A DNA stretch of 64,000 nucleotides from Microthyrium microscopicum (taxonomy: Eukaryota). Below, in pieces: positions 21-59,103 of the stretch. The position numbers were made by a program, and so were the translations under genes. Within the stretch, counting starts at the first letter, position 1; each line of letters begins with the position of its first letter. The stretch is taken from assembly GCA_010405405.1 (NCBI GenBank), contig MU004241.1, forward strand, positions 1 through 64,000, written 5' to 3'. Below the pieces are notes generated by a model. That model saw nothing but the letters and a program-made list of their open reading frames with translations. It ran no database searches and was not told where the DNA came from.

Positions 21-25
21 AAACC

Positions 26-6000: not shown

Positions 6001-7220
6001 CTTAGTAAGCTTCTTTACAAACTAGTATCTTTACCTATAATACGTCCTTATAACTATACTAAAATCTATATATAGCTTAAAGAATATTTTCTTACTTAGT
6101 AAGCTTCCCTATAAACTAATATCTTTATCTATAATACGTCTTTATAACTATACTAAAATCTATATATAGCTTAAAAAATATTTCCTTACTTAGTAAGCTT
6201 TTCTATAAACTAATATTTTTACTTATAATATATCTTTATAACTATACTAAAATCTATATATAGCTTAAAAAATATTCTTTTACTAAATCTAGTAAGCTTC
6301 TCTATAAATTAATATTTTTACTTATAATATATTCTTATAACTATATTAAAATCTATATATAGCCTACCTAAGGGAAAATATTATAAGTATAGTCCTCTTA
6401 AAAAATATTTCTATATTAAATTTAGTAAACTTCTTTACGAATTAATATCTTTACTTATAATATATATTTATAACTATACTAAAATCTACGTATAGCTTAC
6501 TTTAAGAAAGATATTATAAGTAAGTAGTCTTTATAAAGAATATTTCTTTACTAAATTTAGTAAGCTTCTTTATAAACTAATATCTTTATCTAAAATATAA
6601 CTCTATAACTATACTAAAACCTACGTATAGCTTACTAAACTCTTTTAAGTAAGCTATAGTATTAAATAAAGGCGCTACCTTACTAAATATTAGTAACTCT
6701 ATTATAAATAAAAATAATTTTTACTACTAAAATAGAAGTTTAGAAGTTTAGAAGTTCTTAGAGTAGTATAAGTTAGTAGTAATATACTATAAGTTAGATA
6801 TAGTAAGTAATATTATTAAGAGTAGCGTACTCCTTTAGGCTTATTATTAGATTAAATACTAATCTAATCTAGATATTAATTATTTAGTTATACTTATAAT
6901 ATTTATATTATAAGCTATAGTAGTAAGTTAAGCTAATTTATAAATTCTTATATATTTATTCTATTAAATATTAGATTTACTTATCTTACTTAAGACTTTT
7001 GTACCTACTTCTATTAAATTTTATCTATTCTAAATTAATAGTTCATCTTATTTTGTAATTCTATATCTTTTAGCTTACTTGCATCTTAATTTAAATATTA
7101 TTTATTATATAAGATATTTACTTAATACTTTTCAAATCTCAGATGCCCTCCTCTTAGTAAGTATACGGGCTATATTAAATCTCCTACGCCCATCCGATAT
7201 TTAATAATAGTAGATAGGAA
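26..7220. repeat. RIP-mutated subtelomeric tandem array, ~2.9-kb unit, ~2.5 copies
   Basis: Anchor 'ataaaggcgct' recurs with ggcgct at 861, 3768 and 6671 (periods 2907 and 2903). Extreme AT/TpA enrichment, no ORFs, copies differ mainly by transitions. Confidence 0.95.
2770..3740. repeat. ~94-bp minisatellite block inside each subtelomeric unit (also ~26-830 and ~5680-6640)
   Basis: Motif 'tatctttacttataat...ctataactatactaaaatctatatatagcttaaagaatattt' repeats; in the first block 'tatct' falls at 122, 216 and 310 (94-bp period). About 9 units per block, some longer variants. Confidence 0.9.
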
Positions 7221-33399: not shown

Positions 33400-35049
33400 T
33401 GCTTAAAGTCAATAGAATTTCATCGACTCTTATGAAAATATTGGGGCCGGAAAGCTTAAGGAGTCTTGTCATATAGTCCAAGTATCTTGGAAGATTGGTT
33501 TCATATATCATCTACATGGATCATAATGCGTCGTCATTACTCTTTTGACATCTTCTCAGCCACTAAATCATTTCCATTGCGATCAATTAGCCATAACCTA
33601 GTAGTTTTGGGACCAACGAAAAGCCTTCGTGCTCTTTTTGTATCTTCATATTACTTTTTGATACAAGCGGAACAATGAATAGCATTAGGTCGAGAAATCC
33701 ATATGCTGGCAGACCAGTGGTGTCGGAAAAGTCGGCAGTCTCTTTCAAGTAAGATTTAGGGCGAAAGCAACATGCTATCCGGATATAAAGCTAGCTTCAT
33801 CACTAATTTGAATTATATGTTTAAGTTTGGTACCCTGCGAACCTATCAAGTCTCGCTGAAGCCCCAAAAGTTCCTGGAATAGCATCCAAGGATTGGGCTT
33901 TGAACTCATTCTTTGTATTCTAGTAATTTCTAAGCGAATCGCAGCCCGTGATGTGAAAACTCACATTGACTTAATCAAATGCACTACGGAAGGGTCCAAA
34001 TAAACCATAATAATCTGGAGTTTGGTCTATCCCTTCCTCTTCTGTCACTGATTTCAAGGTTTATGGTCATTGTATATTGTTAGAACCGGGTATGTGGAAA
34101 TTTAAATAACAAGTTCCGTTTTCACGAGATTCAAATCACTCCTTCTTACCTGATGGCAGAGCCATGATCTTTTTCAATGTATCAATTTCAAAGAGCCCTT
34201 GTGCTAGCTTTCATCTGCAACTAAATATTCTCTGTTCTGTGTTCGACAAGCACCATTCGAAAAAAAGCGGACTCATGGATACTACAGCATGTACGTAAAG
34301 TTTGATATAACGGGTAGGCAGCTTAAGATGTCATTTTGGGTGTAATAACAAAATGGAAAGTTCAGTCTGCGAATTTAGCCCGCAGTGACTGCAAATCTTC
34401 TTTTGCTCATTCATGCTCGGCCTTATTCATCATTCCACTAGATACTCTCAATAACTGATTGTCCATGAGTTCATTTCTTGCTCACCTTAAGCACGAACAT
34501 TGCAAATCAGCTGTACAGAGCAAAAACTCTTAATTAGGACTTCGCAGCAGGCTCATATAACGGCGCATTACCGCCAACCCCGCTCAAGATAAGAACTTCT
34601 AAACTTCTAAACTTCTAAACACGTTACTATATTACTATATTAGCGACGTTACCCTATTACTATATTACTATATTACTCTTTAATCTTTAGAGCTCTAGGT
34701 TATTAATTATAAATAATTATAATTCTATCTTACTACTTAGAAGTTATTATATTTATATTAGGATATATCTTTCTAATAAGTTAATATAATTATATATATA
34801 TTATATAATAATTAGTAGGAAGTATAAAGTATAAAGTATATAAATAATTACTAAACGTAAGTTTATATTACTATCTAATAAATAGGTATATATATATATA
34901 TCTACCTAAACTAATTAAGTATCTATCTCTTTCTTAGAGTTATTCCTTATACTTTTTACTTTATTATCTTATCTATAATAAAATACTAGGCCTTACTCCT
35001 ATTAATTTAGAGTTCTATTAAGATAAGATTAAAAATCTTATTATAAAAT

Positions 35050-36710
35050 AGTTTTTTACTTATTTAAAAGTTATATATTAGCTAAAAGAAAACTATAATA
35101 TTAATATTACGCTAAGTATACTACATTAGAGGATTAAGTAATAAAAGATCTAACGCTTTATAACTTCTTTATTAGAGTACTATAAAAAGCTTAAGAAAAT
35201 AATAAAATTCTTATTTTATAATAAGAATAGTAATAAAGATAAAATACTCTTTACTCTTTAAACTATAGAATATTTAATAACTATATAAACTTTTTAGCAT
35301 TATTAGTAAAAGCTTAGTCTTAAACGCTACTATAAGTTTACGTTAGATAAAGATTTTATAATAGCTTACTACTAAGATAAAGTAATAGTTCTAGCTAAGC
35401 TTTATAGAGCTTATTTATTAGTATCATTATATAGCTATTAAGCTCTAGCTACTAGACTTTATAAATATAAATACTTAATTCTAGAGGCTTAGATTAATTA
35501 AATTTAATAAGATTTAGATCCTATTAATATATAAGCTTACTAGAGATAAAAATATTAAAAACGTAGCAAATATAGGACTAAAGGCCTAAACTATATCTAG
35601 TTAATTAATAGGTATAATAAACTTAAAAAAGTAGGAATTAAAATTTATAGCTATATTAACGTCTATTTATAAAATATAATCTAGTATTATATTAGTATAT
35701 TAAATACTATAAGTATAAGTTATTTATATTAGTACTTAGATTAGTTAACTATTAATTTTATAATTTCTTAGTTTATTTACTTAGATTAAGAAGGCAAAAT
35801 TATAATACTTATTAACGCTTATTATAAGTTTATAAAGGCTCTAGAGTATAGAATTTCTTTCTTAGATTATTATTTATATAAAACTAGTATTATAAATTAA
35901 AGGATTAAGCGCTAGTAAGGAAGCCTTAGTAAATTAGTATTAACTAAATAGTAAGTAAGTTATATAACTACGTATACTTAAGAGTTAGTACTAATATAAT
36001 AACTTACTAGATATTCTTTAATAAGCTAGTTAATAAGGGTTTTTATTTAAAAGATAAACTTAAAGACTAAATTATAATACTAGCTATTTACCTTTCTATC
36101 TTATAGTATATAGTAAAGGAATTTATTAATAACTAGAATAACTATAAGATTATTAATAATAAGAAAAAGTAACTATACGTAGTAAATAGTAAACCTTAGT
36201 ATCTATATACTTTTCTTTAAAGAGCATAAAATATAGGCTTAGTTACTAATTTAGTAGTACTTTAGGCTAAGAAAGTAATAGTAGAAAACTAGGATAAGGA
36301 CGCTTTTTTACTACTTAATATACTTTAATAGTATAATAAAAAGCTAGATATAATAAAATTTAATTTTAATAGTAACTCCTTTAAAATAAAAGAAAATTAG
36401 TATAATCTAATAAACTTATATCTTAGTTACTATCTTTACTTATAAAGAGTAATTAGTTACTATATAGTATTAAGTAATGCCCTAATTCTAGCTACTCTTA
36501 AAAATCCTTAAGGTAATAAAGCTTAGATTAGAGATTACCTAAACTACCTTATAGTTTAGGAGATATAGAAGGCTATAAATAAAGATAATAAAGATAGTAA
36601 TATTATAGAGTTCTAGGCTACTATAGAATATATAGGACTTAGCTATCTTAATAATAATTAATTAGAGGATAATTTTAATATTAATTTAGCTAAAGAAGAG
36701 AAAATTTAAG
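35050..36710 (+). pseudogene. RIP-mutated IS3/IS481-type (integrase-core) DDE transposase
   Basis: From 35583 it translates GLNYI*LINRYNKLKKVGIKIYSYINVYL*NII*; reversing transitions gives GPNYIWSIDGHDKL..GI.IYG.IDAYSR.IIW. Later YLD*EGK (RSDRGGE) and SIIN*RIKR** (ST.NQRIERWW, ~35887-35918). Boundaries approximate. Confidence 0.8.
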
Positions 36711-39700
36711 TTAGTAATATAGAGAGCAAAAGTAATATAGAAGAGGAGCTTTAGTTTATATTTAGGCATTTTAATTAATAATAATAATTTATAATGATTT
36801 TATATACCTTAATTACTTTTTAAAACCTTACTATACTAGTAAAGCTTAATACTATAAGGTATATTATTAAATAAATAGTATATTCTCTTTATATTAAGTA
36901 ATTAAAGATTTCTAAGTCTCTTAAGTCTCTTAAATTTCTTAAATCTCTTAAGTCTCTTAAAAAGAATAATATAGACGTTACTTAAATTTTTAGTTTTTTT
37001 CTTTATTTTTAATAACATTAATAATAGAGTAAGGGCCTATAGTAGTATTAGGCTTAGTACTTTTAAGTACTTATTTTATTATTATAAATAGCGTATAAAT
37101 TAATTATAATTAAGTAACTAAAATATAATATCTAAAGTGCTAGGTACTTATAAGTATATCTCTTAAAAGAGTTATTCTTATGCCTTTAGTTATATTTATT
37201 AACCTATAAGAGCCTAGGTAAAGATAAATAAAAGATAACTTAAGGCTTTATATATTACTACTATTAGTACTATATATAATTAAAAACCTAGATAATATAA
37301 TTAAGGTTTCTAACTCTAAAACGCTATTATAACTATAGTAATATATTAAATAAGAGCTTTTTTTTATTAAGATAAAGGAATATAATAATATTTTATTATA
37401 AAATTTAAGTAATAAAAGAACTTTAGATAATTTTATTAAAGCGTAATATAGTTAGAGAAGCTACTAGAACTACGTAGAATATAGATTAATAAATGCTATA
37501 GTAAAGCTAGATTCTATTATATAGAAGATTTAATAAAGCGTATTAGTAATTCTTAAAAAAAAAGGTATAAGATTCTATTAAGATATAAGTATAAAAACTT
37601 ATCCTAGTTTAGTTTTTAAAATAACTCTAATATAAATAGAATAGAAAGTAGAGATCTATTTTTATATTATTAACTATAAAACGTAGAGTAACTATATATA
37701 ATTTAACTTTATTAAAGAATATTATAAGTAGCCTAGTTATTAGGATAGCTTATACTAATATATATAATAGCTTTAGTAAATATAAACCTTTTTTAGGGTA
37801 ACGTTAAGAATATTTAGAACTTTATTTATAAATATTTAGCTTCTTATTTAGACGATATAATACTTACTAACTATAATAAAGTCTTTATTTATAGTAAGGG
37901 TATCTAAAACGTTAAACTTACTAGTAAAATTAAATTAAGTAAAGAACTTATAGGTTACGTATTCTTAAAGAATAAGAAGAGTAAGGCTTTAGGCTTTCTC
38001 TTAAAGTAAGGAGAGCCTTCTAAGATTAGCCTTATTAATAGAATATATAATATTATTAAGCTAGCTAGCATTACTATAAATAAGTTTATTAAAAGAGCTA
38101 CCTTTAATATTAATAAGGAGAGTTAACTATAAATTTACTTAATTATATATAAGTATTAAGAAATTATTCTAGACTTTAATTCTAATACGCTTACTTTATT
38201 AGTATCTACTTTAAAGACTTTAAAGGTACCTACTCTAAAGACTTTAAAAGTATATTAGTAGCTACTCTTAGAATAAACTCTTTTAAGACTTAGGTTAGAT
38301 AAAGCTATTAAAGCTAATCTAGGTACTTAAGTAAAGCTTAAGAAAGTTAAGCTTAATATAGATATCCTTAAAAAGATAAAAGCTACTATACTAGAAGCTA
38401 AGTAAATTATAAAGAATCTATAAATAGTAAAGAATTTAGTAGAAGATAAAAATAGATAAGGCCCTAAGTCTATTATAAATAATAAAGATAATAGCCCTAA
38501 TAATAATAAAAAAGCTATAGCTAGTAGTAAAGATAATAATTCTAATGCCTTATTGCTATTATTAAGGACGTTATTTTAGTAACTAAAAGAGAAGAAAGCT
38601 ACTAAAGAAGAGAAGAAAGCTACTATTACTAAGTAAGAGAAGAAAACTACTAAATAAGATATATAGAAGTAGGCTATATTTTAGGTTAAGTTATTAGAGA
38701 ATAGTATATCTACTTACGCTTTCTAATTTTATAAAGTAGTACTTACTTTAGTAGATAAATAAGTAGCTATAGTTATTAAAGTAAATATTCTTAAGGTAGC
38801 TAAGGCTAACGTAGTAGTAAAGAAGTATAAGGGGCATAGAGAAAAGAATATAGAATATAGACGTAGAAATAAGAAGTAAGGTAGCGTTACTTAGTTATAT
38901 TAAAAAGCTATTTAGATATTTTTACTTATTTAATACTTATTATAGTTTTATTATACTTATTTTACTCTTTTTTTTACTAATTCCTAAATAATTAAGGTAG
39001 CGTTAACTTATTAATAATTACTTAGTAAATACTTTCTTTACAAACTTAGTAGGAGTTCTATATATAATAAATATAATGCTATCTTAATTTAGTAAAGAGG
39101 CTAGTAAAACCTATAACTATTACTAGCCTATTATTTCTAACTCTATTAGTAGAATTACTAATTTAGAAAGAATATATTAAATACTTAGCTAAAAAGTAAG
39201 GAGTAAGCGTAGAGAACTTATTAAGGTTTCCTTTTAATAACGACGCTACAACTAGGATTAAGTTATATTTAGTAAATAGATCCTACGTTAGGCTTACTAA
39301 ATTATAAGCTACTTATAACTTAACTAGACTTTAATAAACTTTAGTTTCTTAAAATAATTATTTCTTAAAGTTAATTAAGTAATCTTCTATTAAGCTTTAA
39401 GTATTACGTCCTTTATACGTAGACCTTAAACTTAAATAGGACTAAATCTTAAGAAGAGTTAACGCCTTTCCTAAAATAGAATTAACTAATTTAACAATAT
39501 ATTCTTATATAGGTACTATACATATACTATAAAAGAATAAGTAACTAGCTTATTAAACTATTATATTTCTTCTTTATTTTACTAAACTAATGCCTTTATA
39601 ATACTTAAGCAGTTTATTAACTTATAGGTTAAACCTAAATAAACGTTAGTAAGTATAATAATTAATATAATTTATTAAGTAGAAGTTATAAAACGTAGTA

Positions 39701-40021
39701 TAAAAAACTACTATATAAAGATAAAATAGTTAAGAAATAAGCTTAAGGAATTTACATAATATTGCTATAAATACTACTAGAACTAGAACTACTAATTAAA
39801 AATTAAATTAATTAAAAGTAGTACTAAACTATAAATCTAGAGGCTAAGGAAGTTATTAGTTAAGTATTAATATATTTCTATAAAAAATTAGTTATATTTC
39901 TATTTAATACTATTAGCTACTTACTAAGATATATAATAATAGTCGTTAAGCTTTAACTCTAATTCTAATAAACTTTCTTAGGTTGCTAGTTTGTAGAGGA
40001 GTTATAGTCTTATTTGAGGTA

Positions 40022-43000
40022 TAGTGTTATTAGGGTTATCTTTACCTACTCCTTAAAAATATAAAATAGAGCTTTAGGCTGTAATTAGGTGGATCTACGA
40101 GTAGAACTAGGCGTTATAGTACAAATTTGTAGGGCGCCTCCTAGTCGCGGCCTATTAGTAGCCCCTAAAAACTATTCTTTCTAAATACTACATCTTGGGT
40201 CGCTATTAAAGCTGTACTAGTAATACAGATAGCGGAATAGTAGTATTTAATTACTGCTTATTCCTTACTTTAAGATATCTTAAATAGGTAGTATTCCTAT
40301 TAGTTAATAGCGTTTAAAGCTCTTTAATAGTAATTGTATCTTAACGGAGCTAATTAGGCTATAATCTTGAGTTAGGATCTTAAAGATATTAAAGCTAAAG
40401 TAAGTAGAAGAGTAGTATTCCTACTAGTAGAGTTAAAGATCTAGAGTTAAAGATATTAAATAGCATAGGATTATTAGCATTAAGGGCTAATTATTAATAA
40501 TTATATCTTAAGATTAGATAGAATAGTAAGCTTATATAATTATTAGAGAGCTATTCTAGAGTTAATGAAGTAGTAATAGCGACGACTATAAGATATCTTA
40601 TTAATATAGTCTAAAATTATTAAAATATATCTATTTAACGTTATCTTACCTTTAATAATTCCTTAATATCTTCTATATAACTTCCTACTACTCTTTTAGT
40701 ACTAAAATACTTCTTAATACTATAGTTTATACTTATTAGGTCCTTAGTCCTATCTAATCCCTAAACCGCTATATCTCTATGCATACTATAGGTAAATACT
40801 ACTCTCTAGTACCTAAAAAGGCTATTAGGTAGTTATTTAAGATCTATATAGACGTAGGTAGAAGTCCTTTACTAAAAATGCCTATACTTACCCTAAAGGC
40901 TTTAGTAGCATCTTATCTTAGACATCCTATTCCTATATCTTATATAGCGCCTATACTATTGCTTATTATCTTTCTAAGTAATGTTAATATAAATACTATT
41001 ATTCTTGATTGTTTACTAATATTATTAGCTTCTTAGGTTTAACTAGCTAAGTGTCCTTTATAATAGGATGCTAAGACTTAAGATATCTTAGAATATGCTA
41101 CTAATAGATTATAACTTTAAGATATTAATATTACTTAGCCTCTTTTAGTTAAAGAGACCTAAAATATGCCTAACGCTACTTAAGATATTGTTTATAAGCG
41201 TTAATATAGCCTAGACTACGTCTAAGAGATGTATTTACCTAGAATTGCTACCTAAAATGCTATAATGGATAGCGCTTAGCATCCTAAGATATTTTTACCT
41301 AATTCTAGCGCCCTAGTTCCTTAGATTAACTCTACGCTATTACTACTACTAGTACCTAAATTCCTTCCTAAAATTACTATTATTACTAAGATCTAAAAGT
41401 AAAGAATGCTTATAGTTAAGAATAAATTTAAATAGTATCTTCGCTAGAGCTTAGTTAAAGGCTTTAAAAAGACTTAGGACTAGCTAAATTTGCGCCTTAA
41501 AGAATAAGGAACGATGTATAGTTCTTCTATCTTAATTTAGACGTTTTTAAAGTAAAAAATAAAGAGAGGGACTAAAGATCTTTAATATAGCTTTAGTATT
41601 AATTTAGGCTTAAGCGATAGGGAGCTTAATAGTATTCTTACTTTAATTTAGCGCTAAATTACTTACTAGTATTAGACTAATTTCTATAATAACTCTTAAC
41701 GTATTAGTAATCTTAAATAGAAGATTATATTTAGTATTACTAAGCTTAAATGCCCTCCTTTAGCGTTAATAATAGTAATAGAGATATTAGAATAAGTAGA
41801 TCTATAGTATAAAGAATATTAATAGCGTATTAATTCCTCTTTAGAATTTATAAAGTTAGTAAGGGAATATCTCTATAAAAAGGAGAAATGTCTAAATTAC
41901 CTTAATGGAGAGTACTACTAGAAGGATCCTTATAATAAATATATTTTCCTTAACGCTATAGATTTAAACGAATAGGCCTAAAAGATAGTAAAGGGTAAAT
42001 GTAATATTAAAATACTACCTAATATAATGATAATAAGGCTCTTAGAATCTATAGCTATTTAATAAGCTTACTATTAGTATAAAATAATAACAATATTAAA
42101 TTTAAATTTATAACTTATTAATATTAATATTTATTATAATTAAGAGAGCTTAAACTTACTTAGTAGGTCGTCTAATAGGCTCTTTAGTAGCTAGAGCTAG
42201 CGTACGTGCTTAGCATCTTTACTACCCTATAGTAATATTCCTATAGCCTTATTACTACCTTTAGGGCCTCTATTAGTAACAAAATACTACCTAGAGAAGG
42301 AATTTACTAAGTTTAAGAGGTAGTTCTATAATAATTTGAGCTTTAGGTAGTATTTAGTATTTAATCGTATTATAGAAGCCCTTAAAGCAAAAGGATATCG
42401 TTTAGGGCGGGCTATAGGGCATAATTATACCTAGTTTAAGTAACTTCTTAGTAAGGAGCTAATATTTAGGATTAATAATATACTTAAAATTTGTAAGGAA
42501 ATTATTACTAATTTTTGTTAGTATTATACTTATTAGAGTAGGCTTCTTAACGATACTAATTCTAAACTATCTAGATAGGAATTGTAATAGTAATAGTTTA
42601 ATATTAAATTCTTATTATAGTATAAAGAAGTTAGGATTAGAAGTAATAATTAAAGCTATTTCCTAGATATTTCTACATAACCTTAGACTCTAAGGGATTT
42701 TATTATTCTTTATAATATAATCGCTATATTGAATATACCCTTTAGCTTACTTTCTACTAGGTACTCCTTTACCTAAAACTTTAATTCTAATCCTTAAAAA
42801 CTGCTTAAAAGATATAGAATTCTTGTAGGTATACTACTAGTAGTTATTTATCTTTAACTAGGCCTTTAAATTACTAAAAAACTCTTTAATGGGATTAAAA
42901 TCTAGGTAGTAAGGTAGTAGGAATTCTAATCGTACCTTTATAGCCCTAAATATCTTATAGATAACTTTACTATAATAAAAGGACGCATTATCTATAATAA

Positions 43001-44009
43001 TAATACTTTAAGGAAGAGGATAAAGCTAATAGATATCTAGAAGCTTATTCTTACACTACTAGGTAAAACTATTACTATTACTATTAGCTTTATAGATATC
43101 TACTAATAGGATACTATTAACACTATATACTAGTAGGATATTATACTATTTAGTAGTATTACTAATATTCTTTAATTTTTACTTATCTAACGCTAAGAAG
43201 CTTTTAATATTTAGTTTAATACCTAATTTACTCTATCTTATTATTCTTAAGACGCTAGCGATTCTATACCTTGCTTTATTTACGAAGATAAGCTATTTAG
43301 AGGTATATTTTAATATATAAATATAGTATTTGTAATAAGCTTTAGTAGAGCGCTAGGCGGTAATAACTTTTAACTATAAGATATAAGAATACGTTACTTA
43401 GTATTACTTTATTACTAATCTTCTTTTTAGTATATTTATACCTATTTAGGACTTAAGAGATAAGGGCCTAGCTCGTTACAATACTAAAGGTACTCTAAAT
43501 AAACTTATATATCTTAAATTATATTAAATTAGGTTAGTAAAGGAGGTATTTAAACAGCGTAACCTATATATTATAATCTAGTATTAGTAGAGAACCTAGA
43601 TGTATCTTTATAGGTTTAAAAGATCCTCTAATCCTTAGTATTTGACGCTAGTATTTAATAGTATCTTTATAGTATTTAATAGCTCTAGTAATAAATAACG
43701 TTAAGTAGCTAAGATTAATTATGTCCTTTACTTATTTTTAGCAGTGAGCTTTAAGACATGCTAGCATATTAGAGTATTGTTTATTATAGTATTAAAACAC
43801 TAAAAATTAAGATATTTAATAAAGATTTAGCTTTAGGATTAATAATAATGTAATTTTAGAAGAGGATAGAGTTAGTAAGTTTAATCTAAGGGGCTACACT
43901 GCTAAATTTATATACTAACGTACTCTTTAGATCCTTCCGCCCTCTAATTAGGCCCTAAAGTACTATTTTATAAATTTAGGAGGGGGGGAAAATAATCCTA
44001 ATAATACTA
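40022..44009 (-). mobile_element. Nested ~4-kb Tc1/IS630-type element with TA TSD
   Basis: Imperfect ~65-bp TIRs (left tagtgttattagggttat...tataaaatagagctttagg; right reverse complement tagtattattaggattat...tataaaatagtactttagg), flanked by TA at 40020-40021 and 44010-44011. Slightly less AT-rich than the host element. Confidence 0.75.
42760..43740 (-). pseudogene. RIP-mutated Tc1/IS630 DDE transposase
   Basis: Minus strand reads LIFVNKA (FVDEA, ~43280), IIIIDNASFY (MDNASFH, ~42985), VRLEFLLPYYLDFNPIKE (LPPY.PDFNPIEE, ~42900). Boundaries approximate. Confidence 0.8.
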
Positions 44010-47000
44010 TAAATATAATATTAGTTAGTAGGAAATAACTTAAGGAGGGTTAATAAAGTTAATTATTAGGCTACTAGGTGCTTAAAGATAAGAGTAGTAA
44101 GCTCTTTAATATTTAGACTATATTCTTCTAAGACTCTCTAATTAGGAGTAACTTTATTTTTTCCCTTATGCGTAATATAGTTATCTATATCCTTATTATT
44201 AAATTTATAATAGCGCTCTAACTACTTCTCGCTATTATACTTATAAAAAGGGTAGCTTTTATTAAAGTTAACTTTTTAAATTAATTACTTATTTTCTTCT
44301 TATTCTATCTTTACTCTATTTATCTCTTTTAAAGCTCTTAAAGATACATTAATTTTTTTAGCGTTATTTAAAATGTAAATAGATTAGTAATACTCTTTTT
44401 ATTTAATACTATCTATCTAAATAAAGCTTATCTTAGCCTTGCTTATATTTTTAAGAATTTTTCTTACTTGCTTTTACCTTTTAGAAGATTTAAGTTACTA
44501 AACTTAACTAATAAGCCTATTGTATTACTATTGCAATCTATATATATTTTTATCTTCTCTACTTTTGAACGTGTCTTAAAAATATCTAACTTCTCTTTGT
44601 TATTTATATAGCGCTAAAGGTCCTTATAGAAGGGCATTAAGTAAGATTCTTTAATTTAATATTATATTATATTAATTTATATCTAGTTATTAGTATTAAG
44701 GACTTAATTAAATCTATAACCCTTAGAGTAAATATTATTAAGATAATATATAGGACGAAATAAAGCTTATAAATTCTTAGCTACCTCTTAGTAAACTAAA
44801 AGAGTAGCTAGAAACGTATAAGCTTTATTTATTTTAAAGACTTTTTAGCTAAATGCTTCTATATTAGAATGTTTCATAAAGTAGTAACTTTAACTATAAA
44901 GTAAGATCTAGAGAAAGTTATATCTATATTAATTTATAATTTTAATCTACTCTTCGTCCTAGATAATATACTATTAAAAGGTATATTATACTAAAAGAGG
45001 ATTAAATTTAACTTATATATACTACCTTTAGTATTTTTAAGTCTTTATCTTTTAATATTAGACCTTAACTACCCTCTAGGTAAATTAAGAGAATAATTAG
45101 GGTCTAATATAGCTCTAGAAGAGCTAATACCTACCTAAATTAGAATTTTTGTTAGTCTAATATTAAGTTAGTATTCTTTTTAATAGTAGGAGGAAGTAAA
45201 TAAATTCTTACTTATTAGTTATCTTATTACTAATATATATTTCTTCTATATAAAGTATTATCTTAATTAATAATATAGTAGGTAGAGATCTAGTACTTTA
45301 TTAGTATATATATAATAAAGTTCTTAGTAGAGATATACTATTATATTAGATATAACTATCTTTCTAAAAAAAAGTACTACTAGCTATACTCTAATTAATA
45401 TCTATAATATATACCTAAGTTTATAATTAGCTTTAACTTATTAATATAATACTATTCTTATAAATAGAAGACTTTCTAAAAAGATAAAAGAACTAAATAT
45501 ATAATAAGTACCTAGGGTAAGCAAAGTAGTATACTTACTTTACTATTTTAGGCATAGTAATAATAAATAAAAGTAAATATATTAAAAAATAACTACTAAA
45601 ATAAATAAGAATACTAAAAGTAATCCCTACTATTTTAAAGCAAATTAATAAATAATAAAGTAAATTTAGGACTTACTCTAAAGCGTATATTATAAGCTTA
45701 AATCTAGCAAAGAATAGCTTATAATATACTTTTTGTATTTTTATTTTTATTAGTTATAATATATAAAATATAAGCTTATTATTCTATATCCTTAGATATC
45801 TTAAATAAACTCTTAATTTATTCTTAAAGTCGTTAATTATTACTAGGTAATAAAGTAGATAGATACGTAAGCCTTATAAGTTAAAAGTTTAATTACTTAG
45901 ATTTTATAATATTCCTTTATAAATAAGCGTAACAACTAGTTAGTAATTACTATAGCTAGTAATATATTTTTAGATATTAGCTAACTCTAAGCTACTTTTT
46001 TACTACTTAATTATCTAGTATTTAGATATATACTATAGTTACTACTTCTATCTACTAAGGACTAGCACTTTTTAACTTAAGGAGAATACTACTTAAATAA
46101 AGATATTTAGAAGTAGTTAACTAGCCCGCCTCTATATATTAATAAACTAATAATAATATTTATTAATATTTATTTACGTTATTTAGTATATATTAATAGA
46201 AAGTATATTCCTACTTTTTTTATAATATACTACTAATTATATATTAAGTAATAAAGTTTCTCTATTTTTTTAGAGGCTTCTATATCTATATTCTTTTAAT
46301 AATAATATTTACTACTTTAGATTAATAATATATACTAAGATTTCTATTTAAGGAAAAATTAGGTATATCTAAAGTATAACTACTAGCTAATAAATAATAT
46401 AGTTAAATTACCTTAATAAAGCTACCTAGAGTCCTTACTTAATAAACTTAACCTTTTTAGAAAAGATATATACTTTATACTAAAGTAAAGAGTATAACCT
46501 CTATTATGCGTTAGGGCTAACGTATTAAATATGCTTATTAATATTAAATTAAAATAGAATTACTTTTTGTAGATAGAAATACTCTTAGTAAAATTAAGAG
46601 CCTATAGTTTATATAAATTAATAATCCTATAACTTACTTATATTATTTATATTATTCCTAATATAGTACTTATGCTTCTTAAGGATACAAGGTAGTACAT
46701 AGAATTATCTCTATATATAATAATAATAAGGCTATAATAATATTAGAAAGTCTTTAGAGAGCTTAATTTAAATAAAAATTATAGTAGAAAATTATAGTAG
46801 TTAGCTTTAGTTTTTAGGCTTTATCTTTCTTTTAATTATTAACTTACTAGTATTTAGTTTAGATAGTATTTAAATAATATACTAGTTTTTAACTAACTTT
46901 CCTCTATATTATAAAATATAAGCTCCTTTAATATATAGAATAACCTAATTACTATACTCTAGATTAGAGTATAACTACTACGTAAGTATAATAAGTTATA

Positions 47001-48076
47001 TAGAATTATAGCCTTAAGAAAGTATTATTAGTAAAATAGATAAAGAAAGAATAAGATTAGACTTAAAAAGTATACTAAAATTATTTTATTATAACTAGTA
47101 AGCCTATTTATAAGATAAAATCTCTAAATAAGAAGGTAATTAGTTATTATTAATAAGCCTACTATAGATAATAGTCTATAATAAGCTATAACTAATAAAG
47201 GGTAGTAATATTATTTATATCCTATATATAGTATCTCTAAGTAGTAAATAGTTATAGTATTTAGTATAACTAAAATACTAATTAATTAATAGTTAAAAAC
47301 TATTTATATTACTATAAATTAACCTAGCGTAATATAATATATTAATATAGAACATATTAACATTAAAGATATTAAGACTTTTTTTTAAAAGAAAAAAATT
47401 AATATAAAAAATATCTTACTATTTTAATCTTCTCTAGAAAGCGTATTAAAGAAAGATAACTAATAAAGTATAATAAGATATTTTTAATAATAAATACTAA
47501 AGTATAAATAGTTATAAAGATTATTATAATATTATTACTCTAAAAGGGTTTTAATATTAATTAAAATTTACTAAAATACCTTTATAGTAATTTTACTAAG
47601 TATTAGTATAAATATACTACTTAATAAGCTTTATTATAAAAAGCTTTACTTACCTAAGTAATACGTAGTATTAAATAATATTACTTAGTAATAAAAAGGC
47701 TTTATAGCTATTTTAGCTAGTTAATACCTATATATCTAGAAAACTAGACTAAGTTATAGAAATAGGTTAGATTAGTAATCTCTACTAGTTTTAGCTACCT
47801 TAAAGCTAAGTAATTATTAAATAATATTTTAAAAAGTAACTATAAGTTATTCTTTTTATTTTACTAAAATAAATATATATAATAAGTAAAATAATATCTT
47901 AATCCTTTATATAATAAATAAAATAATATCTTAATCCCTTATATAAAGTATTTCTCTATAAAGAGTAGATACCTTAACGTATTCTAATAGGTTATTTATA
48001 GAGCGCGCGCTATAAGTAAAATACTAAGCATTTTACTATAAAGTATCTTACTATATATATTTTCTTAAGTAGTTTT

Positions 48077-49662
48077 TAGAAAGGAATAGTATAGTAAGCT
48101 TTATAATTAATTTTACGCGCATAGAAGTATACTATACTAAAGAGTATAGGATTAAGAGTAAAGAAAGCTTTTTAGCTAAGAAAGCTTACTTTATAATAGT
48201 AGGACATTATTCCTAAAGTAATACTTATTATTAGATTATTATAGTAAAACTACGTAGATATAAAACTACTATATAGTATAAGCTTAAATAATTACTATAA
48301 ATTCTATATAATTTTAAGTTATGTAAAATTTTTTAAATAATTATAGATAATATTTTTTCCTTCTTTTATAAAATAGCTAAAAAAAAATTATTTTTTTACT
48401 AACTTAGCTCTTAATATAGCTATAAAGAAACTTAGTAAGATTTAGGTACGTATACTACTTATTATATAAACTAATTTAGCGCTACTTAGATATAATAGCT
48501 AAATTAGAGTTATAGTCTTTCTTTTACTTAATACTAAAAAATCTTACTTTATTAAACTTTCTTTACTATAATTCTATTGCCTAATTATATTAGTTATACT
48601 TAATTTAACAAAGGAAGATAAACTTATATATAATTTAGCTCTATAAGATTATTATATAATAGCGCTAACTATTTTAGTATTAATCTTACGTTATTTTCTT
48701 ACTTTTTTTATATTCTTATAGATATAGTATTCTATAATAGTAAGCTAGCTCCTTAGATATTTAAGTATAGATACATTTTATAAGATAATTAGTATTTATA
48801 AAGAATACTTACGTCTCTAGCGTTAGTAATTCTATTAATTAGTAAACTAAATAGTATATATAATAATTTAGTATATAAGTTAAGGAATATAGGCTTACTA
48901 AAACGTAACTTTACCTTATATAATATAAATAGAGAAGTCTAAAATACTCTATATTAATATCTTAAAGCTTACGTAATTACATTAAAAGCTAGAAATTACT
49001 TTTAAGGATATAAATTAGTAGTAAAGAAGCATTAGAAGACGTTATAGCTAAAGAAATAGAAGTTTTTAGTAATTTAGACTTACTAAAAGTTAGTAAAGTA
49101 ATTATAAGTAAAAAAGATAACGCGCTAAAATAATATTATTTAGTAAAGGATTACGCTCTTCTTACTATTAAGATATAATACCTAACCTAAAAGGATAATA
49201 TATAAAGAAATAACTTAAGAACCTATAAAAGAAATAATACTTTAAAAGAAATATTATAGCTAAGGCTTACCTATAAGCTAATTTAGTAAAGAATTACTAT
49301 TACTAAGCTTTACTAAACTTTATTATAGTTATAAATCTATAACCTTACTTTTATTCTTCTAAGGAAGGAGCTCTATAGTACTTACCCTAATTAAAATCCT
49401 TAAGTAGTATTATTTTATTTATTAAAGTTATTTTAAAGAAGATATTATAAGTATAGTCTTTCTAAAGAATATTTTCTTACTAAATTTAGTAAGCTTCTCT
49501 ACAAACTAATATCTTTATTTATAATATATCTCTATAACTATACTAAAATTTATATATAGTCTACTAGACTCTTTTATATAAGCTATAATATTATATAAGA
49601 GTACTACTTTACTAAATATTAGTAACTTTATTACAAATAAAGATAATTTCTACTACTAAAAT
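48077..49662 (+). repeat. Right arm of the transposon, homologous to the subtelomeric repeat unit
   Basis: Colinear with ~1405-3830 (e.g. 'taaagtaatactta(c/t)ta(c/t)tagattatt' at ~1544 and ~48214; 'aaaacgtaactttaccttatataatat' at ~2247 and ~48900) but with only one minisatellite unit. Confidence 0.9.
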
Positions 49663-50197
49663 ATAAAAAATAATTATTACTAAAAATACTATCTAGAGAT
49701 AGCCCTAACTAAGAGTAGGGTAGAATAGATATTAGAATTATTATTAACAAAGGCTAACGTCGCTAATATAGTAATATAGTAACGTATTTAGAAGTTTAGA
49801 AGTTTAGAAGTTTAGAAGTTCTTATCTTAAGCGGTGTTAGTAGTAATGCGCCGTCATAGGCTCACGCATTCCATAATGGCCAATAGTAGTATCAACACTA
49901 TAATTTATAGACCATTGAAGAAGCCACTAAGCTACAACTCTACCATTCCACTAATTAGATTCCTAAGGAAAAGCTCGCTAGATGCTAAAAGTATTAGAGC
50001 ATAATCATTAAGAAAAGAGTAGATCTAATTCTTAAACACCAACTTTTTACAACATCACGCTATTGCATTAGTATGACCTCAAAAATAGCATAGTTAATAA
50101 ATAGGATATGTCTCATTTCAATCTCTCCATATTGCACGCAAGACAACACCAATAGATTATCAAAAGACTGCAGAACCTCCTCCAGTCTCCTTGAGTC

Positions 50198-51364
50198 CTA
50201 AATTCCTTCATCCCAATTGTTTAGCATACTTTCAATCAGAACATGAATTCTGAAAGCATCTTGAAAGGATGCTATACTGTTTGATTTGTCATCTGCTGCA
50301 AATGCCTCATAGACCCTCCCAATGTTTCTGGCAGGCATTGGAAGATTATCCAGCTCGTTCTTCTCAATTGCTATATCCTCCACAACACCCGTCTCCCGGA
50401 TGTGTAATCGTATTGGAAATCCTTCGGTTCGCACATTCAATAAAATGCTGTCCGCGGCGATCTCGATGTCACCCTTTTCACCTGCAATCCGCCAAAGAGC
50501 TTTCGGATCGAATGGAGGAGGATATCCACCTTGAATATGTACCGAAAGTAGAGCTCCAGTTTTTAATTTTGCCTGGAGTAAAATCTGGTCTGGAGTGTTT
50601 TTCTTTGCAACTCCCACCACTTTCCTTGTCGCCCAGGAATCCACTAGTTTTACTTCTGGGAATTGTGTCGCAAGCAGGCTTTGAACTGTTTCAATCTCTC
50701 CCAGAGTGTAGAGAAGATAATCGATAGCTACACGCAACAGGCATGAGCTAACTTCAGGAATAATCAGGGAGGGATGCTTACTATGACCGAAATGTATGGT
50801 CAATATGTTACCACCAACTTCTCTCTGAGTCATGTAAGAAACCGATTCGCTCTCCTCGGCACCACCATTATGAGTATAGCCGTACAAGGTGCTGCTCAGG
50901 ACCTTTCCAATTGTTCCGTCGTCAATGATTTTCTTGATCTTTTGGATGACTGGACTCGCTCGAGCTTGTAGACCAGCCATTGTTCGACTTCCCGACTTTT
51001 CTGCAGCCTCTAGCATTTCTTTGGCTCTAGCTTCATTCGCAGCTAGCGGCCATTCACAGAAAGCGGCTTTAGCTTTTCTCAAGCTTGGGAGGAGTAATGT
51101 GTCGTGAGTGTCAACTCGTGTGTTGACAACGACCAAGTCAACATTTGCATCATCAGCAAGCTCTTCAGGGGATCCATATGCCTTGGTGTCCGCGGAAAGG
51201 CCAAAAGCCTTGATAGCGGCCTCTGCATTGCCACGAGAAGAATTGCATAATGCTACAATCTTGTAATGAGGCGACTTTTGTAGATATGGGAGATGTGCGG
51301 AAGCAGCCCAACCTGTGCCTGTGGCTTTTGCCGACAGGCCAATAATTCCTACTCGAATAACCAT
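50198..51364 (-). CDS. Gfo/Idh/MocA-family NAD(P)-binding oxidoreductase (Gal80-like)
   Basis: IRVGIIGLS...WAASAHLP, VDLVVV, FCEWPLA, GGNILTIHFGH; 54-bp in-frame intron 50781-50728. Confidence 0.9.
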   Translation of the reverse strand: MVIRVGIIGLSAKATGTGWAASAHLPYLQKSPHYKIVALCNSSRGNAEAAIKAFGLSADTKAYGSPEELADDANVDLVVVNTRVDTHDTLLLPSLRKAKAAFCEWPLAANEARAKEMLEAAEKSGSRTMAGLQARASPVIQKIKKIIDDGTIGKVLSSTLYGYTHNGGAEESESVSYMTQREVGGNILTIHFGHSKHPSLIIPEVSSCLLRVAIDYLLYTLGEIETVQSLLATQFPEVKLVDSWATRKVVGVAKKNTPDQILLQAKLKTGALLSVHIQGGYPPPFDPKALWRIAGEKGDIEIAADSILLNVRTEGFPIRLHIRETGVVEDIAIEKNELDNLPMPARNIGRVYEAFAADDKSNSIASFQDAFRIHVLIESMLNNWDEGI

Positions 51365-52215
51365 TTTAGGATCTGAAAATTGAGGAATCATAAGACTATA
51401 AGAGTGAATGAGCCGAATTTAATTTTTAGCAAATACCCCACACCTTATGGCTGTAAAACTCGCAGGATTGCACCATACTAGTAATCCACAACATTTGTCT
51501 GTCGCTTACAAATTCCAGATGCTGATAAATCACGACCGGACTTGATCACTGAAGGGCAGTAATTTGTGACCAACAATATCTTTATGCTGAACCAGCCGGG
51601 GATTTTGCGTCTCATACACGAGCAATAATTCAAAGCATTTAAAAAGTGCGGTGGGGCTCAAAAAGGAACAACACAACAAATTATCGGAGTTGTAAGGGAT
51701 GGAATTACGTTGCGTAGCAAAGCAGAGTTATGGAGAGAACCTTGGAAGGTGCTTGAGAAACAAAGATTCTAGCTACACAGGTGATCGGTTCAAAGGAACA
51801 AAAAAACCTGCATGTAGAACCATCTCAGAAGCGCAAAATGAAACTGTACCCGCAAGTTGTAGCATTAATGTAACGTGTCGACGTTTCCACCACCTGGGTA
51901 AGTGAATCGTTTTTGTTCATCCGCTAGCATGTTTCGTGGACTACCATGAGGAGAAATAGACTGCCATTTCCGTACATGGAATGGATCAAATATAAGCTTG
52001 ATGCTATATTGCATTGAGAAAATGTGGTACTGCTACAAGCAGAGGTTTTCAAAATGAGTTCTCAGTATAGCATATTGAAAGGGCGAGATATATTTGAGAT
52101 CAACGGTAGAGACCGAGACAATACTAGAGATGATCTACCGCCCTTTCTCTCATTCCACCACATCCAGTTGAGTTGTTATCGAAACTGGCTGACCTTCCAA
52201 TCGAATCATGCAAAT

Positions 52216-54142: not shown

Positions 54143-57100
54143 TCATGTGTGGTAAAGTCCCCACGCAACAGAGACCTGGCCATTATTTCCGTTACAGGCC
54201 ATGTTTCCCCCAGCTCCGACCTTACCGTTTGAAGCAAATTGCTGAACTGAAGAGTTGATGAGATCGACGATATCTTGTGCACCAACACTAAAATCAACAG
54301 ATCCCTCGCCTGTAGACCCTTGAACTCCAAAGGCACAAGTTCCAGCCTGGACAATCTGATGCTGCTCATGCACAGCGGCCTCCACTTCCCACACGCCTTG
54401 CGTCCCTACTATATTGGTTACGATTTGCTGGCAATCGGTTGTAAGAGGCGAAGCATCGCTAGTTGCGCCCACAAACGTAGAAGTTCCACAGAGGTTCGGA
54501 CTAGCGGCCACAACACAAGGCCAGTTTGCTTGAGTCTGCGTGCTCGAGTCATCGTATGCGGTGAGCGCCTCCTCGGGACTGCATACAGGAATTCTGATCA
54601 TACCAGCCGTGCTTTCTACTCCACCAAGAAATCCATCGAAGATGGTCCGGACGGAGGGATCTGCTATTGGACCCCCATTCGCATTACCGTTAGATACATA
54701 ACTGTTAACAGCTCTAGAATCACTCCGTCAGCTAAGGCTTCTCACAATTCACTCCAATGACCCAGGCTTACGCCATGACTTACCCAGCGACAATCACATC
54801 ACGAGTGAGGCCTCCCCAAACAGATGTGTCTCCGGTGAGAGTTGAAATTCCGGGTGGAGAAGTGAAGGGGACCTCGGGACAGCGTCCATCCACGGGATTG
54901 GAACATGTATTTTGGTCGATGTTTGTGATAGGCGAGACCAAATAATACAGCTTTGTTCCCACACATGAAGAAGTGGCATGCATTGTTTCTGTCGACATGT
55001 AACGACTGAGAGGGTCGACAGTACCGCAGGAGTATCCACTGTCAATGATGAAAGGATGATAGCCGGCCGCCCCCCAAAGTTTAGGAACTGAATATGCGAA
55101 AAAGGCCTTGGCTACGTACAAATCAAGTTGCGCATAAGTTGGGGGAAAGGGAATGCCACTCTTGCCACCCGAGCCAGTAATGAGTGAGCCGTTCGAGATT
55201 AGAGCCGTGAGAATTTGAATGGAAGCGCCAGATCCATTGAATAACGTAGCCAACGCCTGTTCAGTAGAATTGCCCCAAGCGTTTATAACCTGACCCAGGT
55301 ATGCAGAAAAGGTATTCTGGTCGTCCAATGTCCAATCACCACTTTGGTAGACAAGTTAGCAGCTTTCACACTTTGAATCCAGAACTGTGTTTGATAAGGA
55401 AATAACAGTAGTGACTTACGATTTTTGATCAGCTACTGCATCCTTGCCAGCCGCTAACGAGGCGGCAATGAGTGCAAAAGTAACATCCTTAGCAGTGTCT
55501 ACACCATTAGGGTTACCCTCGAAGGCAGGCAAGTCTCTAATGACTAGAAGAACATGAAGTTAGCATCGAACTGCAGAACCACTATGAGATCTAGCAGTGA
55601 AGTCTGCGAGCTGCTTACAGGAATTGAATAGCGGAGCAACGGCCGCGCCAACTCCCAAGGTGATAAAGTCTAAAAGAATCTGAAGCCATGTATTGTCCTT
55701 GGGGGGAGCCACCGGCGCAAAGGTGGTTTCAAAAGACGGGAAGCTTGGCTCGAAGGTTGCAGCAGTTTGCAATATTGCATTGTTGATGGTGGCGTACATC
55801 TGCGGGTATCTGTTAGATCCAAAAAAAGCTTCTTGAACTTGTTGCGTAAGGATCATTACACGTACCTCATGGATCATAACAAGAGAATTCCATAGTTCAT
55901 AAGCTACAGCGCCAACATTACCCAAAGGACCGGTTGTCGTTTTACATTCCACGGTTTGATCGCAGTTGCTGAATTCGGTTTCCGAACCACAATTCGTGTT
56001 TTCTTGTAAGTTCAGAGTGTTTGCCACCGACTCGCTGAAGGATAACGATGTATGACTGTCAACATTAGTCCACTGATTGATTACATCATTCCAAGCATCA
56101 CTGCCATCCATCTGGCTCCATCGCTGGGCTGGAGACATTGATGCTTGGTACACGACAGCCGAATCTGTGCATGTAACCTGGGTCCAATTGCCAGTCCGCG
56201 TGCCTTTATTGATTGGGTCTATTCCAGACTGAACATCTGAGATAAATTCCGTCCATGAGCTTGCCGGGGATGGGGGATCATTGTAGGCCTGCAGGTCGGT
56301 AGCCCAGTCTGTGGTACCGCCCATGTTGAGCCCCATATACAGGTTGTGTCTCGAATTCTTGACATCATCGGCCATCCACCCAACCCATTGATTGCCGTCG
56401 TATACCAGTATATTTGTTTGACTGCTCTCATCAAGGTAGTTGGAATTAACGCGACTGGGATTATTAATGATATCCTGAATCTCAGCGTTGCTAATGTATC
56501 CAGCTGTGCCGGTACACGGGCCTTCAGCAGCATTGGATTGTGTTTGGCCTCCGGTGTAGGTGCACTGCTCGGTCGAGCAGCCGGGATCAGACATTTCAAA
56601 TGACCGGCCATAACTGGTGACGCCAACGATAACCTGATTTGACGGCACACCCGCTTTTGTGATCTGGAATGTCAAAGTCAGTATGTTCTTGCCGAGGACC
56701 ATCGAAACATAATTCCTGCAAATTTTGACCTTCAGTGCTTTGGGACATGCTCACCATTGCCAAAGCGGTCATCGTTTCAGTCAGGTTGACATCACTACGA
56801 AGACAATTTCCTCCAGGGCAGCCTTCTTGTGAGTTCGAATTCGTTGAATCCCACTATGAAGCATTAGCATTATGTCAACCCATGATGAGGTGGGTCCTCG
56901 TACTTGACCATGCAGATCATATGTCATGTAAACGATATAATCTATGATCTTGGCGATTTTCGCAATAGGATAGCCTTTCAGGTACCAGTAGGAGGAAGGC
57001 GCGGCGATTGAGACGGTTTTTCCAGGGAGCAAACTCTTCAGAAGCGTGAGAAACTGCAAATAATTGTCACCATCAGATGGATCCGCGGGCGGAATGCCGG

Positions 57101-59103
57101 GAATATCCGGAGCCTGATTGTATTGGTCAGTGAAGTGTCGCGAGGGTGAAAGAGAGATGCGTCGTGATAAGTACTTACCCCAGGATACTCCCAGTCAATA
57201 TCAACGCCATCAAGACCGTTTTCGTTGATGAAGTTTGCAATGCTTGTTGCCATGGCCTGTCTGTTGGTAGATGTGACACCTTCGCGGAAGATGGTGTAAG
57301 TGCTTGGATCAGTGGAGAACGTCCAGCCACCAAATGATAAGACTCTTTTGGTTCCTGTCATTGTCTTGAATCTCTGAAACTCGAAGGAGCTCAAAGAATC
57401 TCCCAGGTCAACTTGGTAATCAGGCGTGAGAGCACCAAAGCCGAAATGTAGGTTCGTGTATCCAGAGCTAATTTGCCAGGCATCCTGATACAAGCAAGGG
57501 CGACTAAGGCCAAAGCCTTCATAGTAAGCAACAGTTCTGTAGATAGCAGGAGGTCCACTTGATACAACATCGGTGCCACAATTAGATATACAGCCATTAG
57601 TTCCTGGCTGGGCAGTGCCTGGAGCTCCAGTGTTCGTGTCTGTGCAGAATTCGGCCGTTACTCCACACTGCCAAAAGTTATGTCAGCTCTAAATACTTTC
57701 TAAGACAAGATAAATTTTGTTCCACTTACTTGTCCCCATACATCACAGCAGGCATTGAGCGGACAAGGGTTGAGCGTAGAGATATCCGTTCCAGCTGCTG
57801 GTGTTTGAGTCCCCGGCATGGTCGGCCCACATAGAGCATTGGCGACAGCAGCTGGCATAGGGGGATTGCCTGAACTCAAGCAAATGATGATACCTGCATA
57901 GAGACTGGAGCATCCATTCCATGACCAGGTTTTAGAGTTAAAATCGTTAAGTTGATCAACTGTTATGCTATTGGCAGCGGCGATACCAGCGCAGTAGTCT
58001 CCACTTTGAACAGTATATGTTGCGCAAGATCCGTCTCCATTGGGTTGTGGAGCGTAGTTTGGGAGTGACCCTGATGAACAGCAAACATGCTGGCCAGGCT
58101 GTATGTCACTGCAAATATTGGGGTCGGAGTTGTATTGAGAAAACTGATCTGTTGTGATACCGCACTTTTGCGACAAAGAGTAACAGCCATCGCCAGATAC
58201 AACCTGGATGGCAGTACAATCGTCACGACGTTCTAGGCGTCCGGACCAGCGCCTCAAATTTTGCGGTGAAGTCAGGTTGAACTTGAGACCAGTTGTGTTT
58301 GTGATGTTGCTTGGAGCCAGGATCAGCGGAGTGGTGAGATGAGCAGGGCCATTTACTTCGGTACTATTGTTGAGATCGAGACATTTTGCATTGGCCCATG
58401 ATTGGATTGCAGCTTGTATTGGCCCAAAAGTTGGGTTACTGGTAGTCATCAATCCGAAGACGTGATCTCCATCGTTGCCAGCTTGGCACAGCTGCAGTGC
58501 CACACTTCCAGTGGTTCCAGACATGGAAGAAAGGCTTCCATCCAAAGTTTGAAGGGCAAAGGCGCCGGTTTCTTCGTATTGGAGGCCTTTGCCAATATAC
58601 AAGCCAACAGAAGTTGTGCCCGACCGAGCGAACATGATGAGAGGTTTGGTGGAAGATCCATAGCCACCGGCAAGATAATCACCCATCTGTCTCGAAAGTG
58701 AGCGAACATGCGCTGTAGAAAGCCCGCCATCGGGCCAGGTACCAAGATGGTAGGTAGCATTGATGGTTGTTGCGGCGCGGGAGTTTGTGATATTGGGCAA
58801 ATTCTCCCAGTCCGGGCCATAGGAAGAGCATGAGTATATCCGATGAAGGGCATCGAACTTATCCACTGGGTCAAAGATAGAGAAGGCGCAGAATTGAGTT
58901 TGTTTGCACGACTCAGTCTGCTCCAGGTTATGATATAAAGACCAGTTGCCCGGACTAGGTCCTGCGATGCTGCAGCGCCCTGGACAAGCATTCAAACCAT
59001 TGTAGCCCGGGCTTGCTGGCTTTCTCAGGCCAGGCTGGCCAGAGACTATAGAGGACAGCAAGACTACCGCCCCAAGGCCGGCTTTAAACCAGTAAGGGTT
59101 CAT
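54143..59103 (-). CDS. Subgroup C (killer-toxin-alpha-like) GH18 chitinase: signal peptide, 2 LysM, CBM18, GH18, C-terminal Ecp2/Hce2 domain; multi-exon
   Basis: VVSGDGCYSLSQKCGIT and VQSGDYCAGIAA (LysM), CPLNACCDVWGQ (CBM18), LSFGGW, LDGVDIDWEYPG (DxxDxDxE), YMTYDLHG, GGTTDWA, and CGTSTF...SPLTTDC...GTCAFGV...VGAQDIVDLI...GNMAC (Hce2). Confidence 0.92.

Follow-up and report, generated by a model that had tools for sequence, protein, structure and literature searches.

A dead inverted-repeat DNA transposon of plausible IS3EU/GingerRoot type, with a nested Tc1/mariner-type insertion, in Microthyrium microscopicum

What is the AT-rich block that occupies positions 34550-49864 in the first 64,000 nucleotides of contig MU004241.1 of the ascomycete Microthyrium microscopicum (GenBank assembly GCA_010405405.1; this whole 64-kb stretch is called the window below), and to which group of mobile elements does it belong? 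An initial annotation, made from the letters of the DNA, had read it as one giant transposon bounded by terminal inverted repeats (TIRs), placed it in the IS3EU superfamily and suspected a large, cargo-carrying family. We find that the block is almost certainly a single, real TIR transposon, and that its best overall explanation, to which we give a probability of about 0.5, is an IS3EU/GingerRoot-type element killed by repeat-induced point mutation (RIP) and later entered by a Tc1/mariner insertion.

Boundaries of a single transposon

The outer transposon, or host element, spans 34556-49858 (15,303 bp as it stands) and is delimited by the following features:

34550-34555, no strand: left copy of the target-site duplication, GGCTCA, read directly and the same as 49859-49864
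34556-34654, plus strand: left TIR, 99 nt, begins TATAACGGCGC
34594-34620, plus strand: octamer array inside the left TIR, AACTTCTA x3.4 (Tandem Repeats Finder, period 8, 100% matches)
49752-49858, minus strand: right TIR, 107 nt, ends GCGCCGTCATA
49787-49820: octamer array inside the right TIR, TTTAGAAG x4.2 (Tandem Repeats Finder, period 8, 100% matches)
49859-49864, no strand: right copy of the target-site duplication, GGCTCA, read directly

In a global alignment the two TIRs are identical at 92 of 99 aligned bases, the remainder being 5 transitions and 2 transversions, with one 8-nt indel, and BLASTn pairs them at E 6e-24. A repeat finder reports two inverted pairs of arms, 34556-34642 / 49772-49858 (87 nt, 85%) and 34594-34655 / 49751-49812 (62 nt, 97%), which are mutually offset by 8 nt. 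The termini of the host element are TATAACGG... and ...CCGTCATA (in a longer read, TATAACGGCGCATTACC... from 34556 and ...GTAATGCGCCGTCATA up to 49858), so that the element starts with TAT and finishes with ATA, as the initial annotation had it. That annotation had also described internal repeats with one extra copy on the right; the extra copy is there (3.4 vs. 4.2 copies), but the unit is 8 nt long (AACTTCTA / TTTAGAAG) and not a heptamer. These arrays are putative transposase-binding repeats. The GGCTCA flanks match at six of six bases in positions fixed by the repeat ends, for which the chance probability is ~1/4096. An 8-bp duplication (CAGGCTCA / TAGGCTCA, with a RIP change) was rejected, as it would leave ends that are unequal by two bases.

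With as many as 3 mismatches permitted, the window contains 10 matches to the octamer-array pattern (0.09 expected by chance), and these sit only in the two TIRs and at three sites in a tandem array at the window start (positions 1-7220, block 1 below). None lies inside the host element, and for this reason the AT-rich block is not a composite of two smaller elements standing side by side. A metagenome scan with the same pattern gave one match, AACTTCTA x4 at 8001-8032 of contig L001; it has nothing else in common with the TIRs, the adjoining genes are those for RNA polymerase Rpb2 and DUF5757, and we judged it to be due to chance.

The base composition, including the guanine-plus-cytosine content (GC), and the RIP indices differ sharply between the element and its surroundings, which bears out the RIP that the initial annotation had invoked:

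Inside the element: GC 20-26%; TpA/ApT 1.62-1.71; (CpA+TpG)/(ApC+GpT) 0.07-0.23
Flanks: GC 47%; TpA/ApT 0.69; (CpA+TpG)/(ApC+GpT) 1.34-1.37

Counted in 100-bp bins, CpA+TpG falls from 13-18 to 4 and then to 0 across the left end, and goes from 1-3 to 13 across the right end; the limits of the RIP-mutated zone coincide with both ends of the element to within 100 bp. Such a match is expected if RIP recognised the transposon itself as the duplicated unit. Exact transposon boundaries can thus be traced in an AT-rich isochore of a RIP-active fungus even where no genes survive.

One could still suppose that there is no transposon here, and that the inverted repeat and the 6-mer match around an AT-rich isochore are both coincidental. 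All that speaks for this is the lack of a recognisable transposase, and it is effectively refuted by the BLASTn E-value of the inverted ends, the low probability of the six-base flank match, the RIP boundary at both ends and the occurrence of related ends in block 1. The host element is accordingly treated below as what its structure makes it, a dead class II (cut-and-paste) DNA transposon.

Nested insertion, former genes and repeats

Part of the length of the host element belongs to a second transposon, for which the features are as follows:

40020-40021 and 44010-44011, no strand: TA target duplication of the nested element, read directly
40022-44009, minus strand: nested Tc1/mariner-type transposon, 3,988 bp, junctions read directly
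42849-43157, minus strand: DDE_3 transposase relic of the nested element (Pfam PF13358)

Its ends form an inverted pair (40011-40088 / 43944-44020 by BLASTn, with repeats of ~75-140 nt) and begin with TAGTG, which is consistent with a RIP-mutated CAGTG. When 72 stop-free open reading frames (ORFs) of at least 28 amino acids from 40000-49860 were compared with Pfam, 7 had any match at E <= 1, and the only credible one was DDE_3 (PF13358) on a 49-amino-acid ORF at 42861-43007 on the minus strand (E 3.7e-6), the other six (E 0.013-0.45) being taken as noise. Read through its stops (written as X), the DDE_3 frame reaches 32.1 bits (cut-off 28.6) and covers profile positions 34-135 of 146. The inverted ends, the TA duplication and the DDE_3 relic together make this a Tc1/mariner-type element. 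Its likeness to that group lies in the TA duplication, the CAGTG-consistent ends and a DDE_3 match above the Pfam cut-off, and its difference in the length of 3,988 bp, which is longer than is typical of Tc1/mariner elements.

The ~4-kb nested insertion that the initial annotation had postulated is therefore real, and so is the figure of ~11.3 kb that it gave for the remainder: once the nested part (26% of the total) and one TA copy are removed, the host element measures 11,313 bp. The nested element has undergone milder RIP than its host (GC 26%, (CpA+TpG)/(ApC+GpT) index 0.23 vs. 0.07-0.09), and being less mutated it probably arrived later, with RIP already under way in the host element.

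Former genes were sought in the purine/pyrimidine string, which RIP leaves unaffected as it makes transitions only. A phase-specific fourth-order purine/pyrimidine model was trained on 18 flank ORFs of at least 200 amino acids, and the resulting periodicity statistic D was calculated in 900-nt windows against 400 shuffles (null 99th percentile 27.2, maximum 30.4). The scanning windows above 27.2 were distributed as follows:

Left arm: 4 of 16 (starts at 36056, 37556, 37856 with D 46.6, and 38156), plus strand higher
Nested-element region: 4 (among them the one at 42356, with D 39.6 on the minus strand, which is that of DDE_3; the one at 43556 reaches ~450 nt into the right arm)
Right arm: none of 17, D at most 20.7
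Block 1: none of 22, D at most 20.3
Ordinary flanks: 40 of 132

A finer scan resolved the left-arm signal into two segments in different frames, at ~35840-37000 and ~37640-38900, with a weak third segment reaching to ~39700. The two segments are recorded with these limits:

~35840-37009, plus strand: former coding segment A, codon starts at 2 mod 3, D=35.6 vs. null 27.2
~37551-38900, plus strand: former coding segment B, codon starts divisible by 3, D up to 46.6, the strongest in the element

The tandem repeats within segment A have periods of 9/27 and those within segment B of 24 and 21/27, all of them multiples of 3, and the two tandem arrays of the left arm that lie outside both segments have a period of 22. 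Overall, ~2.5-3 kb of former gene or genes lie near the left end, on the plus strand and reading inward, at 35.8-38.9 kb. Purine/pyrimidine periodicity, being immune to RIP transitions, can still locate genes of this kind.

Three other guides were dropped. Strand composition confounded stop-codon density; the long ORFs on the minus strand at 37.9-38.9 kb were pyrimidine-rich artefacts; and a BLAST search in the purine/pyrimidine alphabet, intended as a RIP-proof dot plot, gave 307 matches in its shuffled control, which makes its E-values meaningless, so that it served only for the observation that both known inverted pairs head its list. Within the nested element, a second stretch at ~40.6-41.8 kb has borderline coding periodicity (D 24-27) and may be a second gene that this element once carried.

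The left-arm block, which is read inward, starts ~1.3 kb inside the left end, and this is where the tyrosine recombinase, or "captain", of a Starship usually lies. A small Starship-like element is nevertheless very improbable: neither DUF3435 nor another recombinase was matched by Pfam in the left-arm frames and the coding-like segments, 11 kb is below the sizes reported for Starships, and it is DDE transposases that typically go with ~100-nt inverted ends, internal repeats resembling binding sites and a clean 6-bp duplication.

The right arm is of another character:

44012-49751, no strand: right arm, 5.8 kb, no coding signal, tandem and palindromic repeats

It looks non-coding and repeat-rich. 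Among its repeats are degenerate tandem duplications of ~290 bp at 44768-45311 and of 270-340 bp at 47046-47681, and short palindromes at 44758-44830 and 44932-45020; these duplications and palindromes could be remnants of small foldback elements.

The initial annotation had concluded from the 11.3 kb that this might be a large family with cargo, a claim that these observations do not support. The sole coding-like signal outside the nested element is the one ~3-kb block on the left, and the extra length consists of a nested transposon and a non-coding, repeat-rich arm in which no passenger gene is visible. That the element was intrinsically large and carried passenger genes is accordingly improbable in our estimate.

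An opposite reading takes the size as not intrinsic at all, and makes of the host element a small, possibly non-autonomous TIR element that was swollen by later insertions, of which only the Tc1/mariner one is recognisable; there would then be neither a giant family nor cargo. One nested insertion is proven, and the right arm, with its many tandem and palindromic repeats, has no periodic window and no Pfam family. Against such swelling, Pfam revealed in the two arms, DDE_3 apart, no domain of a reverse transcriptase, gag or transposase, no long direct-repeat pairs resembling long terminal repeats and no extra inverted pairs with duplications were found by BLASTn, and the element contains no internal copies of its own ends.

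Relatives of the right arm at the window start

The relatives of the right arm within the window bear on the same question:

1-7220, plus strand: tandem array (block 1), AT-rich and RIP-mutated, period 2,907 bp, units 92% identical
48051-49666, plus strand: segment common to the right arm and each 2.9-kb unit, ~84% identity (BLASTn, alignment)

The array comprises at least 2.4 units, runs off the left edge of the window and ends at 7220. It has counterparts of the final 1.8 kb of the right arm: 48051-49559 matches 1380-2885 and 4287-5792 at 84% (BLASTn), and the subterminal part has matches at three sites. Every unit contains the homologue of the right arm, a 94-bp repeat (x5.6-7) and a 133-bp repeat (x2.8), and the 94-bp repeat, which is subterminal, has ~1 copy in the host element vs. 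5.6-7 per unit. The unit then continues with (TTTAGAAG)x3, TTCTTA, GTTAGTAGTAAT and a GCGCCGT-like run in which every G/C is changed by a transition. This stretch corresponds to the right TIR's outer part in a shortened form, without ~110 bp of inner sequence and with the last four bases different. A further ~430 bp follow before the next unit, and the final copy of this part is free of RIP beyond ~6990.

The simplest reading of these similarities is that block 1 derives from a second family member, of which the right part and adjoining DNA would have been tandemly duplicated and then RIP-mutated. The left end of this relative is beyond the window, so it provides no second target duplication. 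The recurrence of the right arm at 84% shows that the family, or at least its right arm, is multi-copy, which explains why RIP acted on it.

With block 1 in view, the swelling of a small element can be weighed further. It gains from the fact that the terminal 1.8 kb of the right arm behaves there like a unit that amplifies on its own, and it loses from the fact that the shared part of the right arm reaches right-end-like sequence in block 1 too, and so belongs to the family. We regard this alternative as possible, although doubtful.

Two details of the array concern its own end. The last 230 bp, 6990-7220, have their CpA/TpG intact, yet the same positions are mutated in both copies upstream; here RIP fades out towards the margin of a repeat. 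At 7220 itself, ~30 bp are similar to the start of the unit, which suggests that the array may have ended by unequal recombination at short homology.

The host element itself is ordinary, and the less expected part of the locus is the tandem array that stems from its right arm. It is tempting to picture an ~11-kb IS3EU-type family in a RIP-competent ascomycete, with genes in the left third only and a right arm that seeds satellite-like DNA, but as a whole this picture is unlikely to be right. If the pattern recurs genome-wide, new AT-rich tandem-repeat blocks would arise from the family, which would then be more than a target of RIP.

As regards the genomic surroundings, the insertion site is intergenic and ~340 bp past the 3' end of a Gfo/Idh/MocA oxidoreductase gene. 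The neighbouring genes are:

50201-51418, minus strand: Gfo/Idh/MocA oxidoreductase with a Gal80p-like C-terminal domain, 3' end ~340 bp from the right TIR; an intron or a disturbed frame is apparent in its ORF translation
55563-59175, minus strand: neighbouring ORFs with a LysM domain and a fragment of glycosyl hydrolase family 18 (chitinase-like), a chitin-related pair ~6 kb from the element

Superfamily and known relatives

IS3EU/GingerRoot is the most likely superfamily for the host element, plausible if unproven, because the 6-bp duplication, the TA..TA termini and the long inverted ends are its published signature. The relevant passages of PMC10045372 give target-site duplications of usually 6 bp and TA..TA termini for this superfamily, and those of PMC12730594 on rust IS3EU elements give TIRs of >30 bp with TAYGG..CCRTA termini, and duplications of 8, 7, 3 or 2 bp for other fungal lineages. 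Here we find a 6-bp duplication (in one complete copy), TA..TA and TAY..RTA termini, and TIRs of >30 bp. The part of the IS3EU call in the initial annotation that concerned the ends and the duplication thus agrees with both sources; the part that concerned the defining transposase is not confirmed, as the annotation had seen an integrase-core relic near the left end, where we find only a former coding region.

Several results weigh against the assignment. No rve or other credible DDD/E domain was found in any frame of either arm: the six read-through frames of 34556-40257 (stops as X) and those of 44012-49858 each gave 0 Pfam families at E <= 0.5, and for the four coding-like segments, with the limit raised to E <= 10, the sole match was RST (E 0.076), a noise hit. 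Segment B (450 amino acids, stops read through) had 0 matches at E <= 0.001 among 1,835,955,588 proteins (HMMER), and for segment A a word-indexed search gave none at E <= 0.01 among 8,000 scored candidates, which were proteins of 214-683 amino acids only. The same read-through method recovered DDE_3 in the nested, less mutated element, a positive control from which it follows that missing the enzyme in the host is not purely a failure of the method, with the reservation that the host element is more degraded than this control and RIP may have erased its domain signal. The periodicity model, in a leave-one-out test, scored the true frame best in 12 of the 18 training ORFs and confused it mainly with the antisense frame, and is thus good at detecting periodicity and moderate to poor at strand. 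The terminus TAT(G/A)ACGG fits TAY and not the TAYGG of the rust families, and the 6-bp length of the duplication is taken from the one complete copy within the window. Lastly, hAT families with 6-bp duplications exist, according to the passage on them in PMC12730594.

These points bear on the possibility that the host element is a RIP-dead TIR transposon of another superfamily with 6-bp duplications, be it hAT6-type, a shortened Polinton/Maverick derivative, Dada or an undescribed one, which we rate as possible, though the weaker choice. In the lack of an rve or DDD/E domain, the call to IS3EU/GingerRoot is made from the ends and the duplication length, features of which the hAT families just mentioned share the latter. 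Polintons have 6-bp duplications, inverted ends of at least 100 bp and AG..CT termini, and the host element is like a Polinton/Maverick in its 6-bp duplication, long inverted ends and total near 15 kb. However, 4 kb of that total is the foreign nested element, the termini are TA..TA rather than AG..CT, and no polymerase B, integrase, ATPase, protease or capsid gene was detected in either arm (Pfam, the sensitivity of which is limited by RIP); at 11.3 kb without a trace of polymerase B, ATPase or capsid it makes a poor Polinton, although RIP could hide them. The hAT termini are YARNG, which TATGA/TATAA does not match, the inverted ends of hAT elements are usually shorter than 99-107 nt, and Pfam, with limited sensitivity, found no hAT domain in either arm. 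Dada elements target small RNA genes, and the fact that the 64-kb window has no tRNA or Rfam match counts against an element of that kind.

Returning to the IS3EU/GingerRoot assignment, we propose that the left-end block would once have encoded a DDD/E (RNase-H-fold, integrase-like) transposase that bound the octamers in both ends, excised the element and inserted it at a target cut with a 6-nt stagger, the repair of which would have produced the GGCTCA duplication. Once the family had become multi-copy, RIP in sexual cycles would have converted most CpA/TpG to TpA and ruined all of its genes. The outcome is that the genes of the host element are mutated past recognition and the element is inactive: as it stands, a degraded transposon without identifiable cargo. 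Should genome-wide copies prove to encode an IS3EU-type enzyme, a larger and long-ended family would join the few IS3EU-like elements of ascomycetes.

The closest such element by description is REP9/Styx of Zymoseptoria tritici, which PMC8232023 and PMC10853768 present as IS3EU-related, 7.9 kb long and with four genes, with 6-bp duplications in 33 of 36 copies and ends of 43 bp (or 36 bp), and for which the tree in PMC8232023 places the rve-domain transposase nearest to IS3EU. The initial annotation had called this superfamily little characterised in ascomycetes, which in view of REP9/Styx is overstated. The host element is likened to REP9/Styx by description only, not by sequence: both have an ascomycete host, inverted ends and a 6-bp duplication, are larger than a transposase alone needs and are subject to RIP. 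They differ in that REP9 measures 7.9 kb, with 43/36-bp ends and four intact, expressed genes, whereas here we find 11.3 kb, 99/107-nt ends and no recognisable gene.

With IS3EU/GingerRoot as a whole the host element shares TA..TA termini, a 6-bp duplication, TIRs of >30 bp and a similar size class (the IS3EU-1_PGra consensus in Table S1 of PMC12730594 has 9,258 nt and a TATGG start). Those families differ from it in having a DDD/E transposase and passenger genes, the TET/JBP and alpha-kinase genes that the account of rust and Tuber IS3EU families in PMC12730594 describes, none of which is identifiable here. Large, multi-gene, passenger-carrying IS3EU-type elements are thus already published for fungi, at 7.9 kb in REP9/Styx and ~9.3 kb in the rust families, and the transposon described here is probably a new member of an already known sort of element.

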